A stretch of DNA of 50,979 bases from a virus (Duplodnaviria; Heunggongvirae; Uroviricota; Caudoviricetes), in the IMG/VR virus record IMGVR_UViG_2526164596_000013; one strand, given 5' to 3'. Each line of letters opens with the position of its first letter. The stretch's first letter is position 1. Under the pieces are notes generated by a model that had not been told where the DNA came from, did no database searches, and was given only the letters and a program-made list of their open reading frames with translations. Positions 1,195-31,010 of this stretch are shown piece by piece. A program made the position numbers and the translations under genes.

Positions 1195-4100
1195 TATGCA
1201 AGCCTCACAATATAGTTAAATGCGATGTTTTTGACGGTGTTTTCCGCGTTACCAGCAGCGTTAACGGTGATGGTATGTCCATGTGAACCAATCGCAACGG
1301 AGTGCGTATGAGCACCAATACCGACAGTATGTGCGTGTGCACCTGCGCTTGCAGCAGTACCCGATACAGAGTGCGTATGAGCGCCTGCAGAAGAAGTGTT
1401 AACACTGTATTTAGAATAATCAGGTGATCCACTTCCCGGAGCACCACTGGAACCACCTGAAACAAATGTCATCGAATGGGTATGTGCACCGGCTGAAGCA
1501 GCCGTACCGCTAACACTATGGGTATGCGCACCAGTGTTATTCGTGGATTTAGTGCCGTAATCAAACGACGATGTGGTTTTCGTCCCCAAATCCGTACTGG
1601 ATGCGCTGGCGCTGTGGGTGTGCGATTTAATGCCGTCCTGTTCCTGAGACAATACGGCACGACCACTGGCGGGCTTGCCCTTAATCGTCCAGCCACGCAT
1701 ATCAGGGATCACGCCTGACGGATAAGCAACTGCAAGTTTCGGGTAAGTAGATTTGTCAAAAGTCTGCCCCTGCATCAGGGCATAACCAGACGGAACGGTA
1801 TCTGATGGCCACGGGATTGGTGCACCGACTGGATAAAACTCTGCAGGAGGATGAGCCGAGGTGTAAAGCTGCGCCCACGGCGACCAGTTTGCGTCGGTCG
1901 TATCCCGTCGTGAACGAATAAATGCCGGAGCATGAGCACCGCTTGTACCACTCCAGCCGATGAGTAACTCACCTTCGCCAACGGCTGTCATCCCTTTCAG
2001 GTGAATGATATTTCCATACGCTGTTGGATATCCGTTGTTATACACCTCGTATAACTCAAGACCTGTTGCCCCCTGTGTATTGTCTGTCAGCGCGGTTACC
2101 CGACCTTTTGAAGACAGATTAACTGATGATACTGCTGTTCCACCTGACGGTAACGCCCCGATCTCTGATGCCGTTGGCTTATTTCTGGAGTTATAGTCCC
2201 TTCGCCAGCCAGGTGAATAATCTGTTCCGTGATTAATATAGGTAAACTGGGCGTTAGTTGTTCCACCACCAGTGGAGGTGGTCGGTGTGGTAATGCGGAT
2301 CGTCATCGCTGACTTTATCCCCATTACTTCAATGACAGCTCCGGCGAGATGAATATTACCGCAGCCAGTATCAGTAATGATTTTATTATTGCCATAAGAC
2401 CAGGAACCCTTGCACATCCAGTATGGATGGTTAAATGCTCCCTGAGAATCCAGCCACTCGATAAACTGTGCAGTCGTCCAGTTTCCTGTTGTTGTGCTTA
2501 CTGACCCACCGAAGGCACGGCAGGCACCAATATTTTTCGTAAAGGTGTCTTTGCCAGGGATATCCGCACCGTTCTGATCTTTCTGCAGACGTTTCTCAGC
2601 ATTGTCATTGGCTGCTTTTACTGCCTTTGGCGTTGCCGCCAGCGTTTCAGACGTGCTGTTGGTCGCGCTGCTTAGCTGGATTATCCCTTTCTGTGCTGTC
2701 GTTGCATCCTGTGCGGTGTATTTCCCGTTAGCCAGGTCATACGCGGCCTTAACGGCTTTTGGCGTTGCCGCCAGCGTTTCAGACGTACTGTTGGTCGCAC
2801 TGCTGAGCTGTACTATCCCCTTTTTCGTCGTGCTCGCATCCTCAAGCGCCACGGCGGATGCAATATCCTCTGCCCGTTTTGCCGCTGTCTCAGCGCGCGT
2901 TGCTGCAGATTCCGCCGTACTTTTGCTCTGAGCTGCCGCCGTCGCACTGCCAGCTGCCTCTGTCGCCTTCGTGGATGCCGTCGTGGCGCTACCCTTCGCT
3001 GCTGACGCCTGTCTGGTCGCCTCATCTTTTGAAGCAGACGCAGATGATGCCGATGACGACGCCGAACTGGCTGACGATGCGGCAGCCGTTTTTGAGGATT
3101 CTGCGCTGGTTTCCGACGCTTTCGCGTTCGTTTCGGATGTCTTCGCTGCGGAAGCAGACCTCGCTGCTGCGCTGGCCTGTTCAGTGGCTTCGCCAGCCTT
3201 CGTTGTGGCTGTTGAAGCAGACGATGCGGCGCTTTCTGCCGATTTTCCGGCGGCGGTGGCACTGGCTGAGGCCTGCCCGGCACTTGTTGACGCTGCACTG
3301 GCAGACGACGCAGCCGCTGTTTTTGAGCCTGCCGCAGCCGAGGCGCTCTGTCCCGCTGCCGTTTCAGAAGACCTGGCGTTCGTCTCTGACGTTTTTGCCG
3401 CCTTCGCGGAATTTCCTGCCGCTGTTGCCGAGGAAGCTGCGCTACTGGCGCTCGAGGATGCGTTCGTTTCTGATGATTTTGCCGCCTCTTTTGAAGCCGC
3501 CGCATCCCGGGCTGAGGTGGCAGCTTCTGACGCTTTCGTAGTCGCGGTGGATGCAGAAGTGGCTGCTGATTGTTGTGACGCTGCAGCATTCGTTTCTGAC
3601 GTTTTCGCGGCACTGGCACTGGTAGCTGCCGCGCTTTTTGAGGACTCTGCAGCGGCAGCACTTTTTGATGCTTCAGTGGCCTTTGTTGATGCCGTTCCTG
3701 CGCTGGAAGTCGCTGACTGAGCCGACGACGCGGCCTGTCCGGCTGACGTGCTGGCTGCGCGTGCTGAGCCTGCAGCATCAGTCGCATGGGTTGCCGCCTC
3801 ACGGGCTGATGTGCTGGCATCACTGGCTGACTTCTTCGCGGCTGCCGTGTTCTGTGCCACCACGGACGCGTTACGCGCCACCTCTTCCACCATCAGCTCA
3901 AAACGGCGCAGTGCCTCCGGACGGGCATCATCCTCCGTCATGGCACCGAGAAAATCATTCAGCGTACCGGGTCGGGAATCTTCATACACTGTGATGGTCC
4001 CGGCATGTGACGGTGGGAATCCTTCCACCAACAGAATAACGCTGTACTGACCGTACTCAACGTCCATACTGTAACGCCCGGCTTCATCCGGATTTTCAGA

Positions 4101-25474: not shown

Positions 25475-25948
25475 TTATTTCAGGCACTGAGTGCGGATAT
25501 AGTCCTGTGCCCCTTCCAGTTGCTTGTGCATCGTCATCAGCCGCTCTCTGAGGGTGAAATAATCCCGTGTAACGGTGTCTGCCAGTTGGGGGCCGGTTGC
25601 ATTATCCACGCCGGAGGTGGTGGGGGCTTCACGCACGGAGCCTGGACAGGTGGCGTTGATCCGCAGGCGCTTACGACCAGCGGCAACATCAGCGCGCAGA
25701 GTTTCATTTTCAGCTCTCGCATCGGATAATTCCCTCGAGTATTTTGCATCGAGCGCAGCAACATCGCGCTGGCGCACCTGCATATCAGTAATGGTTGCGT
25801 TCGCCAGCTTCAGTTCACTGGCTTTGTTATCGCGCTGCGCTTTGTAGGTAATCGCGTTATCACGGTAATGGTCTGTTGCCATCCACAGCGCACCACAGGC
25901 CACCAGCAGAATAACGATAAACGCGGAAAGCATTCGGTTTATGTTCAC
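25475..25948 (-). CDS. Rz: i-spanin Rz
   Basis: 157-aa ORF; [44 protein letters not shown]...[18 protein letters not shown] matches lambda Rz as recalled; N-terminal TM helix. Confidence 0.9.
25537..25722 (-). CDS. Rz1: o-spanin Rz1 (lipoprotein) embedded in Rz in +1 frame
   Basis: [22 protein letters not shown] lipobox followed by [14 protein letters not shown] proline-rich segment as in lambda Rz1; start at 25722 chosen by alignment. Confidence 0.8.
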
Positions 25949-26429: not shown

Positions 26430-26963
26430 TTATCTGTCGATTCCCCAGCACGCCAGCGCGCTCTCCTGGTCACGACGGGATACCTGACCATAACAGTTAT
26501 TTGAGCGGATACGGCAGTCTCTGCCACCGTCCTTAATCCACCAGCGAATCGCCTCACACGCTCCCCTGCGGTCACCAGCATTCAGCCGCTTATAAAACGT
26601 CGACGGGAAACACTTACCGGGGCCAATGTTATAGGGACAGAATGACGCTATACCCGCTTTCTGTGGTTCGGTCAGTGGAACTTTAATATTGCGCTCCACC
26701 CATGCCAGCGCCTTATCCCGTTCAATGGCATTAACCTGGTCGCATTTTTCCTTCGACAGTTTCATGCCCGGAATAACAGGTTTACCATCCACCATTGTGG
26801 CACCGCGGCAGATGGTCCAGATACCCGCACCATCACGGTATGCCGTTGTGTGGTTACCTTCTTTTTCATCCAGAAACTGGTCGAGAATATCAGGCGCAGG
26901 CGCACCGATGGCAATCAACGCCAGAACGGCAGCCGACAGGCCATATTTGATTTTGGTGTTCAT
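26430..26963 (-). CDS. R: SAR endolysin (phage-lysozyme family, phage 21 R-like)
   Basis: 177-aa ORF; N-terminal hydrophobic signal-anchor LSAAVLALIAIGAPAP followed by lysozyme core (EGNHTTAYRDGAGIWTICRGAT...); downstream of a pinholin. Confidence 0.8.
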   Translation of the reverse strand: MNTKIKYGLSAAVLALIAIGAPAPDILDQFLDEKEGNHTTAYRDGAGIWTICRGATMVDGKPVIPGMKLSKEKCDQVNAIERDKALAWVERNIKVPLTEPQKAGIASFCPYNIGPGKCFPSTFYKRLNAGDRRGACEAIRWWIKDGGRDCRIRSNNCYGQVSRRDQESALACWGIDR

Positions 26964-27091
26964 GGATATTTATCAGGATTTATCGGTTCCGAATCCCTGG
27001 ATATGTTAAATCTTCAGCCCGCCAGAGGTAGGACACTGGCGTTTTTCCTGATGGCTGAAATATATCTGACAATTTCAGTAGAGGATTAACC

Positions 27092-27406
27092 ATGCATAAC
27101 GATCAACATAATTATGATTTATGCCTGCAAGCCATAAATGAGCGGGTAAAATCAGAGTGCCTCTTACTCCTCCCACAAGAACACGATGCAGTAAAATCCA
27201 TTCAGGCTGAGCCGTATGGACATCTCACACCTGTGACTCTCGGCATTATCGCCAGAGCATTAACACAGCCCATGCTTATGCGTATTAAGACCAATATAAA
27301 TAACTGGTTGAATGAAGAATTAAGCTACCTTGATTGTGAGTGGGACAATCATTACGCAAAAACACAAAAAGAACGCATCTTCAGTCGATTATCCAGCAAC
27401 AGATAA
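27092..27406 (+). CDS. hypothetical protein (104 aa), oriented against the late operon
   Basis: ATG 27092 preceded by GAGGA SD at 7 nt; no recognised domain; convergent with 27416-28222. Confidence 0.45.
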   Translation: MHNDQHNYDLCLQAINERVKSECLLLLPQEHDAVKSIQAEPYGHLTPVTLGIIARALTQPMLMRIKTNINNWLNEELSYLDCEWDNHYAKTQKERIFSRLSSNR

Positions 27407-27415
27407 CGAGCCACC

Positions 27416-28222
27416 TTATATACGCCCTTTCAGATAAGTCATCCCCGGCTGCATCCAGTCAACAGGTGCTTTCTTAAAGGGCGTATTATCAAAATCACGC
27501 AGAAGAGCCTCCAGCACAACTGCATCATTGTCAGCACCACTGGCCATCATTTCAATCTCAGCTGCTACCTGCAGATATCCCATGCAACGACCAATGCGCT
27601 TCATCAGCCCCTGCTTTTTATTGTTCTTCAGGTAATCAATGGCAAATTCAATGAGCGCCTCACTATGCTGGTGCGATGGCGGTGTTAATTTCCCATTTTC
27701 TGAGATGGTTATTTTCCCGCCATCTCCGTATACAACAAAGGATGGCCGGTTACACTCCCATTCCTGATCTTTATCAGGTGCAGACGCAATAAAATAACGT
27801 TTATTTCCTTCCTCTCCGGCACTTTTAACCGTAATGGAGTACTCAGACTGCAGACAAGACGCCTCTTTTTCTGACCGCAGTGTTGACGGCGGCATCTTCA
27901 GAGAACCAGTAATTCTTCCCGGTAGCTTTCCTTTGTAGGTTATCAACACATCCTGCGCCTCTAAAATTATGGGGCGCTTTTCCGGCAACGGTTCGTTCCC
28001 TTCACATAACCCGGCAGCAACATCCATGAAAAACTGCTTCGCCTGCTTTTTCGCCTCAGCTTCGTAAAACTCCAGCGTGGCACCTTCAGTACGGTCAAGA
28101 CTAATCGCCACATCTGGCAACAACAGTGACGGATACCCACCAATTTCCAGTGCCACAGTAACAGTAATCTTATCCGGATAATTATTTATCCCTTTAACAC
28201 CCAGTTCGTATTTTTTCTTCAT
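27416..28222 (-). CDS. hypothetical protein (268 aa) inserted between holin and endolysin
   Basis: ATG 28222 lies 4 nt after the holin stop with GGGGGGAG SD inside the holin 3' end; no recognised domain. Confidence 0.55.
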   Translation of the reverse strand: MKKKYELGVKGINNYPDKITVTVALEIGGYPSLLLPDVAISLDRTEGATLEFYEAEAKKQAKQFFMDVAAGLCEGNEPLPEKRPIILEAQDVLITYKGKLPGRITGSLKMPPSTLRSEKEASCLQSEYSITVKSAGEEGNKRYFIASAPDKDQEWECNRPSFVVYGDGGKITISENGKLTPPSHQHSEALIEFAIDYLKNNKKQGLMKRIGRCMGYLQVAAEIEMMASGADNDAVVLEALLRDFDNTPFKKAPVDWMQPGMTYLKGRI

Positions 28223-28226
28223 CGCT

Positions 28227-28442
28227 TTACTCCCCCCGCGCCGCCTTACGACGGTCCTCTCTGATTTTGAAATACAGGTTAGTCAGATATGTCAGCAGCC
28301 CAAACAGCAGACTCCCCAGCACGCCTATTGCCGCCCACTGAGACGGGGAAACCCTGTCCAGCAACTGCAGGAACCAGTAGCCCGTTCCCACCGCTGACGT
28401 GGTGTATGACACACCTGTTGTGATTTTTTCCATCTGGTACAT
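28227..28442 (-). CDS. S: pinholin (phage 21 S21-like) with dual-start MYQM motif
   Basis: [71 protein letters not shown] closely resembles S21 (two TM domains, Met1/Met4 dual start, charged C-terminus); ORF extends upstream to 28547. Confidence 0.85.
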
Positions 28443-28591: not shown

Positions 28592-30445
28592 TTATGATGA
28601 TGCCGGTGCATTTATCTCCAGCACCAGACTTTCTATCTCAACGCCATACGTTGCATTTTTGGTAATATCCGTCAGCGTCAGTGCATTTAGTCCCACTGCC
28701 AGACTGTCTTTTATGGCCTGGAATGCCGGGCCAGCCACTCCATTCAGTTTCGGAGTAACCGTGGCACTGCCGGCGGTGAACACCAGTTCCAGCGTTTGCC
28801 AGTCATTACTGTAATTCCCGAACTCGCCCAACTTTGTGTTTCCTGCTTTCTTGTGATGCATCAGATTCAGTTTGCCGTCTGTGGTCTGGGTGAAGAACGA
28901 CATCAGGAACGGGTTACCAGTCCCGGTCATCGCCACGACGTCAGGTAACGCTACATCGGTATACAGATAAATTCCCAGGCCGAACTGGTTGTTGGTCAGT
29001 GCGCCTGACAGTCGAAACTTACAGCTCAGTCTGCCACCCCGTGTCAGCAGGGAGACTGCGTCATCCACCGGGCGCGTCAGGGACCAGGCTTTATTGCTCT
29101 GCTTGGTGATCTTAAATACACCCTCTGACAACTGAATTCCGCCATTCTTAATGCTCCAGCCCTGCGCAGCAGCGTCTCCGGCTGTCGGCAACAGGGAGAT
29201 TGTGCGTACGGATGCATCTTCAGACGGCCCCGATGGCGTGTCGCCGCCGGGCGAGGGTTTGATTTCCGGTGCCTTACCACTGATGAAGGCTGAGGTGCGC
29301 CCGGCTGCGTTCAGAATAGCGGTTGCCATACGATCCGGAATAATGCTCCTGCGCGCCCATGAACTGAAATGTGTCGGGCGGTTTGATGATACCTGGTTTC
29401 CATTCGTTCTCGATGCCGCACCGTAATATCCTGATGCCGGAATATCCGGATCTTCTGCCGGTGCGTTAGTGGCGGTATTGACGCCGTTACCGTCTGTCAT
29501 GAAGGGCACAAAATAAACGCCCTCACTCTCCCTGTTTTTATACCCGCCGTACACGGTGTCGTACTGGGTAGCGTATGTATTTTTCCAGTAATACGTCGTG
29601 TCACCACAAATCCACGGCACATTTACAGCACTGCCACCATGACACTGCGCGTTAAACACAGTGAGGTCAGCACGAAACTGCTTCAGCATGGCTGTAAACA
29701 GCGCAGGTTGCTGTGCGTAGGTGGCGGCGTTCATGTCAAACTCTCCCTGCATCCAGCACACCGCCAGCAACACATTTTTCGGGTTCTTCTGTAATGCAGC
29801 TTTAGTGCGCGCAATCAGGTCCTGATATAACGGTTTACCCACACCCCAGCGTGCCGAATCCTGGCTGGCCCCCGCGTCCGCACTGAATGTCCCCTCCGCG
29901 CCCTTGGTGAATGCCGAACCACCACGACAGCATGGTACCAGCAGGATCCCCGCGTTATTCGGGATATACGGGAGCAGTTTTTTGGCAATATGTAAGCCCT
30001 GGCCGACACAGCCGTACTGCCCTTTGCTCAGGTCTGCCTTCGGATGATTCAGCGTACTCATATCCTGCACATCATGCAGACAGTGGTCAGCCGGGATGAT
30101 GTCGTTATACGTACAACTCTCTCCACCCGGAGTTACCGTGCTGCGGCGCGCCAGCTGTTTAATGCGCGGATCCGGAGCATCGTAAGAATCCGGTAACGGA
30201 AGCCCTTCACCGTAGGCCATGCCGTTGGACTGTCCGGCAAGCACAACCACGTAGAACCAGTCCGGCTCAGATGAAGGGCCGACCTGTGGATCTCCTTCAA
30301 TAGCCACCGCCTGCATCAGTGTGTACGGCGTAATGGCAACCGGTCCGCCATATGGCTGCCAGCCCTCTTTCAGTTTGTGTGTCAGCTTTTCCGCAAGGTC
30401 TGACGGCGACGCCGCCCTGACAACATCATAGTGTTTAAATGCCAT
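28592..30445 (-). CDS. NanS-p-like sialate O-acetylesterase (N-terminal DUF1737-like region + SASA esterase), Stx-phage-type moron
   Basis: 617-aa ORF starting [38 protein letters not shown]..., GGSAF/GQSN-type esterase motifs; same position (between tRNA cluster and S) as the large esterase ORF of Stx phages; GGGAGGA SD. Confidence 0.7.
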
Positions 30446-30892
30446 GAATCCTCCCGGCCGGGATAATATTGTGAGTAAAATGAGGAGCGGGCTGAAGTCC
30501 GGAAGTTACAGGACAATGGCAGAAGAGAGACAATAGCCCGCAATACGAAAAAGGCCGCGCTATTGCGCAGAGTGATTACTGTCGGATATTATTCGCCAGC
30601 TGAAATATTACTTCACGTTTTGTTGTTTATTCCTTGCCGCCCGCGTCTCCCTGCGCGGGATTTTTTTGTCCATAAGAAAGCCCCTCCGGAGAGGGCTGGA
30701 GAGTGGCGCTATGTGCCATTGCATGGTGCCGGGTGCCTCCCGGTGAATTCAGTACCAGCACCTGAATCCGCGATTATCCCATATACCTACTCGCTGATTG
30801 CCCCTCCGCACAGGGGGATTCACCATGCCAGTTTCTTTTAACAAACTCCCCGCAAAACAGACAACTGTCAACCGTCTGAATTGTGAGACATT

Positions 30893-30933: not shown

Positions 30934-31010
30934 TGGCGCGTTGTACTGGATTCGAACCAGTGACCGATTGCTTAGAAGGCAATTGCTCTGTCCGGCTGAG
31001 CTAACAACGC
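30934..31010 (-). tRNA. argO: tRNA-Arg (anticodon UCU)
   Basis: rc gives GCGTTGTTAGCTCAGCCGGACAGAGCAATTGCCTTCTAAGCAATCGGTCACTGGTTCGAATCCAGTACAACGCGCCA; cloverleaf with 7-bp acceptor, anticodon loop CTTCTAA, encoded CCA. Confidence 0.85.

Follow-up and report, generated by a model that had tools for sequence, protein, structure and literature searches.

We consider the lysis region of a tailed phage (Duplodnaviria; Heunggongvirae; Uroviricota; Caudoviricetes), a prophage of Escherichia coli, recorded as IMGVR_UViG_2526164596_000013 in the IMG/VR database; the whole stretch of 50,979 nucleotides (nt) that was analyzed is referred to as the window. Between the holin gene S and the endolysin gene R of this region, two genes face each other: a 268-amino-acid (268-aa) open reading frame (ORF) on the minus strand (27416-28222) and a 104-aa gene on the plus strand (27092..27406). 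The initial annotation of the locus placed both of them correctly between an S21-type pinholin and the endolysin, came close in giving their separation as 10 bp (the spacer between the convergent stop codons, 27407..27415, is 9 nt long), and described the pair as an inserted two-gene cassette with a plausible role in defense, exclusion or lysis timing. That observation is real, but its premises are partly wrong. The locus is probably best explained as a YdfR-family late gene and an antisense moron that stand side by side.

The genes around the pair make up a phage-21-type lysis cassette, with a holin of the S21 family, a lysozyme with a signal-arrest-release (SAR) N-terminus, and Rz with an embedded Rz1. 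Read on the minus strand, the cassette starts along the late transcript with a gene for a SASA/NanS-p-type esterase (28592-30445), followed by S, which encodes a class II holin (pinholin) of 71 aa (28227..28442; PF04971, E 9e-33; also class II holin in RefSeq), the 268-aa ORF, the opposed 104-aa ORF, R, which encodes an endolysin of 177 aa (26430..26963; PF00959, E 2.8e-25), and the Rz spanin gene (25475..25948; PF03245, E 7e-47) with the Rz1 ORF (25537-25764) inside it. The N-terminus of R, MNTKIKYGLSAAVLALIAIGAPAP, is hydrophobic, rich in Gly and Ala, and SAR-like. The 268-aa gene has its ATG 4 nt past the S stop codon and its Shine-Dalgarno (SD) sequence, GGGGGGAG, within S as the last S codons; it is translationally coupled to the pinholin, rides the late transcript and is made late, in agreement with the initial annotation. 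From the 104-aa gene to R the scan finds nothing like a terminator, nor is there a consensus promoter immediately before R; on the minus strand the nearest match (27555-27527) is inside the 268-aa gene. For these reasons R is probably reached by late transcripts running antisense across the 104-aa gene, which had also been proposed. The region upstream of R itself (26964-26999, minus strand) has no obvious SD sequence, and CCTGATAAATATCC precedes the ATG; R is uncoupled from the preceding late gene, unlike in the Qin prophage of Escherichia coli K-12, where the ydfR stop overlaps the rrrQ start.

The 268-aa protein, in which the initial annotation saw no recognizable domain, does contain one. 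Residues 1-100 match PF07041 (DUF1327/YdfR) with an E-value of 7.4e-44 and 148.3 bits against a cut-off of 25, the full protein matches phrog_1085, and RefSeq names the product a "YdfR family protein". We divide the protein into modules, all encoded on the minus strand. Module A (residues 1-75; 27998..28222) is the DUF1327/YdfR domain, and module A' (residues 76-118; 27869..27997) is a linker that alignments find in common with gp52 of phage 2H10 and other long YdfR forms. Module C1 (residues 119-155; 27758..27868) is an optional segment, YSITVKSAGEEGNKRYFIASAPDKDQE, and module C23 (residues 156-268 and the stop codon; 27416..27757) is a conserved C-terminal domain with the motifs HxH, GRCMGxLQVAAEIE, DFDNPPFK and W..PG..YLK. 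A further module B, a coiled coil, is absent from the window protein and found in other forms. The YdfR family is a mosaic of these pieces, with A alone (YdfR, 103 aa), A-A'-B (phage 2H10), B-C23 (185 aa), B-C1-C23 (213 aa), A-A'-C1-C23 (the window protein), and forms of 296 and 329 aa. Profile searches give no Pfam or PDB relative for C23, and the profile of the 268-aa protein run against PDB sequences gives nothing meaningful. The AlphaFold2 model of the protein is unusable past residue 72, with a predicted local distance difference test (pLDDT) score below 50 in C23, so that no fold is proposed for C1 or C23. Among the species representatives of GTDB, C23 occurs only in Escherichia and Shigella.

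These modules agree with the single experimental study of the YdfR family, in which two-hybrid and co-purification assays show residues 1-72 of K-12 YdfR binding to RNase E in its N-terminal half, and RNA co-purifies (PMC13232886). By homology, the catalytic half of RNase E is probably a binding partner of the N-terminal domain of the 268-aa protein, and RNA may be another.

Is a gene between S and R unusual in such a cassette? The initial annotation took S to be normally followed directly by R. We examine 80 IMG/VR loci with a holin at least 97% identical to that of the window, 72 of which retain R. S abuts R in 10 of these 72, and one more has a 110-bp gap without any defined module; the remaining R-retaining loci have an intervening YdfR-type or related gene, and an intervening gene is tallied in 62/72. 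Because S abuts R in only 10 of the 72, this lineage normally has a gene between S and R, and S followed by R is the exception. The 268-aa gene fills the post-holin slot as the resident gene of such cassettes, and it encodes a soluble YdfR/DUF1327 protein fused to the optional C1 and C23 modules. The initial annotation had allowed that the 268-aa protein might turn out to be a conserved accessory protein of most such cassettes, and this is largely what is found, as the YdfR/DUF1327 family follows S in most S21-type cassettes; it had also allowed that the 104-aa ORF might lack conservation, and that ORF is conserved.

The Qin prophage of K-12 has the order essQ-ydfR-rrrQ with the same 4-nt gap from the holin gene to ydfR (b1555), and its YdfR is 45% identical to the window protein in the N-terminal domain over 78 aa. 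The K-12 protein has only 103 aa and its stop codon overlaps the endolysin start, whereas the window protein has 190 extra residues (A', C1 and C23) and its gene is separated from R by the opposed gene. The complete pair has already been sequenced, as orf5 and orf6 of the Stx2-converting phage 86 (AB255436 / NC_008464), which are 99.6% and 100% identical to the window proteins, follow the same order S-orf5-(orf6)-R without substantive difference, and were deposited as hypothetical proteins. We find no support for the COG0188 topoisomerase note on phage 86 orf5, and no description of orf5/orf6 or of DUF1327 morons in the open-access literature. In a prophage of the 2011 O104:H4 outbreak strain 2011C-3493 (NC_018658.1; L001 6988-7323), the counterpart of the 268-aa gene is frameshifted and annotated as a truncated pseudogene and the 104-aa gene is intact; the region is 1602 bases there against 1601 in the window, one base longer.

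The 104-aa ORF is a true gene under purifying selection at the protein level. Its five alleles range from 100 to 60.6% identity and all have exactly 104 codons, the pairwise ratio of nonsynonymous to synonymous substitution rates (dN/dS) is 0.25-0.49, and every other frame contains 2-13 stops. As had been noted, it has an SD sequence of its own, AGAGGA at 27080-27085, 6 nt ahead of the ATG. The AlphaFold2 model is a five-helix bundle (pLDDT 89.9; predicted template modeling score, pTM, 0.83), and the protein is soluble; it lacks a signal peptide and any membrane segment, its top 19-residue hydropathy being 1.16. It matches phrog_1853, and an exhaustive profile search of 1.84 billion proteins returns only 21 relatives of the family. 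The profile and structure searches that the initial annotation called for thus part company for the two proteins: the 104-aa protein has no Pfam, NCBIfam or PADLOC family, no known fold and no structural relative, and its family profile finds nothing meaningful among PDB sequences, while the N-terminal domain of the 268-aa protein is DUF1327/YdfR. Neither protein has a match in PADLOC-DB v2 at E up to 1 or in NCBIfam; no evidence points to defense, and a role in lysis timing or exclusion is a guess. The 104-aa profile also gives short matches, in 5-11 stretches with E from 2e-20 to 2e-4, to the giant proteins P0120 (6458 aa), P0121 (3579 aa) and P0133 (2532 aa), which may be repeat proteins.

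We turn to the evidence that this gene is a moron, for which the defining features are extra DNA between genes that are adjacent in relatives, a distinct base composition, an own promoter, an own terminator and expression from the repressed prophage (Juhala et al. 2000, as reviewed in PMC3594210). The extra DNA is a 409-bp segment (26987..27395) that BLAST breakpoints show to be missing from the otherwise collinear prophages L012 and L094. This segment consists of the 104-aa gene and its upstream region only, so the claim of an inserted cassette stands for the 104-aa gene, which is a clean indel, and falls for the 268-aa gene, which is not within it. The base composition is distinct as well, with a GC content of 0.41 in the 104-aa gene and 0.42 in its leader against 0.53 in R and 0.55 in S. 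Because the junction in L012 and L094 retains the final 11 nt of the 104-aa ORF (GCAACAGATAA), with the breakpoints between GATTTATC and GATTATC, their state indicates a secondary deletion. The junction in L011 and L013 differs, part of the upstream region being retained there. One could read such losses as the decay of passenger DNA that is now functionless in E. coli prophages, given that the gene has been lost repeatedly (692/787 E. coli genomes with C23 are without it) and that the two kinds of junction look like two different deletions. The low dN/dS given above, the five alleles of 104 codons, the confident fold and the retention of the gene in distant phages make this hardly credible.

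The next question is whether the 104-aa gene has anything to do with its neighbor. At every locus with readable context, relatives of the 104-aa gene are convergent with a C23-encoding gene, down to 28-43% identity. The C23 partners of the distant relatives are 33-42% identical and have the same motifs, and the convergent genes of relatives are at most 19 nt apart and overlap by up to 33 nt. Three holin families adjoin the pairs, and the position of the pair shifts relative to the holin. It lies between S and R in the E. coli variants L003 and L006-L010, and in L097-L099 the same place is taken by a 104-aa relative with a 65-aa C23 remnant. The pair is upstream of an S21-type holin in L096, of an HP1-type holin and SAR lysozyme in L107, and of a PF05106 holin in L100 and L101, and it adjoins a PF16080 holin in L103; L102 is also among the loci with the pairing. 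Since the two families stay convergent neighbors down to such low identity, the 104-aa protein may have C23 as its target or partner, for instance by binding a leaky late product. As a side observation, L107 has, immediately ahead of its C23 gene, a 118-aa ORF (3184-3540, plus strand) that resembles YdfR weakly (pairwise E 0.003) and has no Pfam hit, which is weak support for a YdfR homolog; were the match true, A, C23 and a 104-aa relative would be found together upstream of an HP1-type holin.

A stronger form of this partnership would be a toxin-antidote pair, in which a late-made C-terminal domain is harmful, 104-aa protein made in the lysogen neutralizes the leak, and late antisense transcription removes the antidote. 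The convergent pairing, conserved from E. coli to the distant relatives, would suit such a pair, and so would the distribution of C1, found in 25/26 loci with the 104-aa gene and in 11/56 without it. The partner is moreover annotated as frameshifted or partial in L012 and L094, where the 409-bp deletion has removed the 104-aa gene. The O104:H4 strain presents the opposite case, with the 104-aa gene intact and the partner frameshifted. Intact C1 and C23 also occur without the 104-aa gene in L108, L111, L118 and L147 (268 aa) and in L105 and L106 (209 aa), and the intact 185-aa form of C23 is the commonest of all. Like a type II toxin-antitoxin system, the window has two small adjacent genes on a mobile element; the differences are that these genes are convergent and not co-transcribed in an operon, that the supposed antidote is usually absent, and that there is no toxin-antitoxin domain or family hit and no PADLOC hit. 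We regard a toxin-antidote pair as unlikely, and its obligate form is rejected because intact C23 proteins are commonly found without the 104-aa gene.

The 104-aa gene is preceded by a leader/promoter cassette (26964..27091, plus strand) that is conserved ahead of its distant relatives and ahead of at least 24 unrelated cargo families. Its elements are the TATCAGGATTT box, a weak -10 sequence TATGTT (27002-27007), a 6-bp helix P1 in which TCAGCC (27014-27019) pairs with GGCTGA (27053-27058), and an 8-bp helix P2 in which CGCCAGAG (27020-27027) pairs with CACTGGCG (27034-27041). Within the 50-66 nt that precede their ATG, the distant 104-aa relatives keep TCAGCCCG(C/T)CAGTG, a loop with CACTGGCG after it, and ATGGCTGA. 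The window has one copy of the leader pattern (27014-27041) where 0 are expected by chance. A pattern scan of IMG/VR finds the leader in at least 120 contigs, and we analyzed 94 instances, with 89 callable downstream ORFs. These 89 ORFs, mostly of 65-105 aa, fall into at least 24 unrelated families of no known function, for which Pfam gives one DUF1883 hit and the matching PHROGs are all "unknown". In 65 unique leaders, the consensus is about 150 nt long with a core close to 90-100% conserved. P1 and P2 are paired in 59-65 of the 65, and the variation in the helices is nearly all T-G (55/65 at one P2 pair), a wobble pair only in the cargo-sense RNA. By blastn the leader is present in 224 E. 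coli genomes, and it is unannotated in all 25 of the matches listed among them.

Wherever orientation was checked, the cargo is antisense to the flanking late genes (6/6 ORF-mapped loci and 4/4 annotated phage records). The units sit between tail genes M/L or I/J, beside the tape-measure gene, near terminase/HNH genes, and in the lysis cassette. Some of the cargo genes are annotated: gp23 of HK022 ("srb protein; moron gene product"), convergent with the moron gp22; gp25 of ES18 ("possible moron"), convergent with gp24, a DUF1327 protein; gp65 of HK633; and gp72 of mEp213. In L095 an unrelated 95-aa ORF occupies the slot of the 104-aa gene behind the same leader. This gene (phrog_10490; L095 1453-1740, plus strand), also found in the same slot before R in L014, L138, L149, L218 and L220, is convergent in L095 with a 75-aa DUF1327 gene, which itself comes after a 213-aa B-C1-C23 gene. 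In phage Perceval (OV696612.1; L311 1472-1841), only the first 53 nt of the leader are present, within 370 unannotated nt that separate the endolysin gene from a 104-aa hypothetical gene located after the holin; the fragment resembles a remnant that lacks its cargo. Ahead of the leader, most copies have AAAAGCCGC-ACGAT-GGCGGCT (consensus 1-21, not conserved in the window), which on the opposite strand is a hairpin followed by TTTT and may terminate the flanking late-strand gene.

Several further readings of the leader were tried. A helix P3 is unsupported in the alignment register used, and sigma-54, LexA-box and extended -10 readings made by eye misfit in spacing and consensus, the sigma-70 scan being empty there. 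Rfam (release 15) has no match to the leader, with E-value limits of 1 for the window and 10 for L193, and the folding of the leader RNA in the window is not exceptional (z of -1.57 for the plus strand and -0.77 for the minus strand). We find no description of the leader in the open-access literature, a scope outside which the original HK97/HK022 and ES18 genome papers fall, so that an earlier notice is possible; a transcriptome paper on LF82 morons has no data on the element.

Such a class of interchangeable cargo raises the alternative that the 104-aa protein works by itself in lysogenic conversion or superinfection exclusion, like HK97 gp15, its neighbor being irrelevant and the pairing a matter of physical linkage. 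The gene does belong to a leader-driven class that includes annotated morons, and exclusion of other phages is frequent among morons (PMC3594210); one cargo can be exchanged for another behind a given leader, and most leader instances have no DUF1327 or C23 neighbor. The 104-aa protein, however, is soluble and has neither a signal peptide nor a membrane segment, and PADLOC gives no hit for it. Physical linkage also explains poorly why C23 stands beside the 104-aa family at every examined locus when both move relative to the holin. We judge this alternative improbable.

A timer of lysis at the level of RNA may also be considered, in which convergent transcription would produce complementary RNA that lowers or delays R and spanin, the proteins being secondary. 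Late transcripts must cross the 104-aa unit to reach R, which lies 452 nt from the preceding late-strand stop as against the ydfR/rrrQ overlap in K-12 Qin. The YdfR domain, for its part, is tied to RNase E and RNA and weakly resembles double-stranded RNA-binding domains. On the other side, it is the protein sequence of the 104-aa gene that is under purifying selection, and the same leader also occurs in tail and packaging regions, in which the timing of lysis plays no part. An RNA timer is very unlikely.

The explanation that we favor, a YdfR-family late gene next to an antisense moron, can be put as follows. The 104-aa gene would be the moron, a discrete low-GC block headed by a conserved leader of its own that is some 130-150 nt long. 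Its unit may be transcribed independently from the repressed prophage, and Q-driven late transcription across it would silence the 104-aa gene. A number of observations weigh against this explanation. The 104-aa gene has no terminator of its own past 27406, the partner stop being 9 nt off, and the only hairpin with a T-run lies upstream of the gene (27020-27046). The scan gives no consensus sigma-70 promoter ahead of it, where it has the upstream cassette common to annotated morons. With no consensus promoter ahead and no terminator after, we can only infer that the unit has its own transcription. RNase E binding was demonstrated for K-12 YdfR, at 45% identity, and not for the window protein. 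C23 DNA is present in 787 of 5426 complete E. coli genomes and the 104-aa gene is kept in 95/787, and intact C23 proteins of 185, 209, 268, 296 and 329 aa exist without it. The leader helices are almost without two-sided covariation, P2 of the window holds an A-A mismatch, and the leader could act as DNA (an operator, promoter or recombination linker) and not as RNA. A DUF1327 neighbor is detectable in only 15/94 leader instances, so the leader is not a YdfR-specific target.

Two of these points also bear on how the parts of the locus relate. Because intact C23 proteins occur without the 104-aa gene and only 95/787 genomes keep it, any partnership between the two is dispensable. The association of the 104-aa family with C23 is old, and the 104-aa protein is an accessory and not an essential antidote. 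The suggestion that the pair travels as a unit, which the comparison of S-R junctions was meant to settle, is borne out by the convergent arrangement at every examined locus; it goes too far in that the pairing is not obligate. Likewise, since only 15/94 leaders have a DUF1327 neighbor, the leader is independent of YdfR, and the idea that the leader RNA is a target of the DUF1327 protein is weakened. Where such a neighbor exists, it is convergent and directly past the cargo in 14/15 instances. A bolder proposal is that the leader is an undescribed cis-regulatory element (a promoter and a structured 5' leader with the near-invariant helices P1 and P2) that defines a large family of antisense morons in the lambdoid phages of enterobacteria, with freely swapped cargo; that the 104-aa gene and C23 are an old interacting pair on lysis cassettes; and that the YdfR domain links the module to RNase E and RNA decay. 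We put this forward tentatively, as a possibility that is more doubtful than the explanation above.

Among known systems, the lambdoid morons HK022 gp23/gp22 and ES18 gp25/gp24 (PMC3594210) have the same leader and a small ORF antisense to the late genes, and in ES18 the moron is convergent with a DUF1327 protein as in the window. They differ in lying between tail genes and in having cargo unrelated to the 104-aa protein, whereas the window unit is inside the lysis cassette and its late-strand partner also carries C23. Lambda bor is likewise an opposite-strand accessory gene beside S-R-Rz, and bor after Rz is also found in phage 86; it encodes a lipoprotein, however, lies outside the S-R interval, and has no such leader and no convergent partner. 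Farther from the pair, upstream of the esterase gene, the window has a match to the STnc100 small RNA (129.5 bits, E 3.7e-29) and a tRNA, at 30668-30857 and 30937-31000 on the minus strand. This is the position where Stx phages have tRNAs and stx, and no stx gene was seen in the examined part of the window.

The two genes thus belong to known kinds and had been deposited as hypothetical genes; the part that merits further work is the leader, which is conserved in front of cargo that can be exchanged. Genes of the YdfR type, which occur in Stx phages and in the O104:H4 strain, rank with the most common genes of unexplained role in the lysis cassettes of E. coli, and they have one recent functional lead in the binding of RNase E. 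The 104-aa/C23 pair is conserved, narrowly distributed and easily manipulated, which gives a handle on the function of both. The leader singles out, in one stroke, over 90 moron genes of unknown function, and if it is a regulatory RNA or a specialized promoter, it would explain how these genes are on in lysogens and off during lytic growth.

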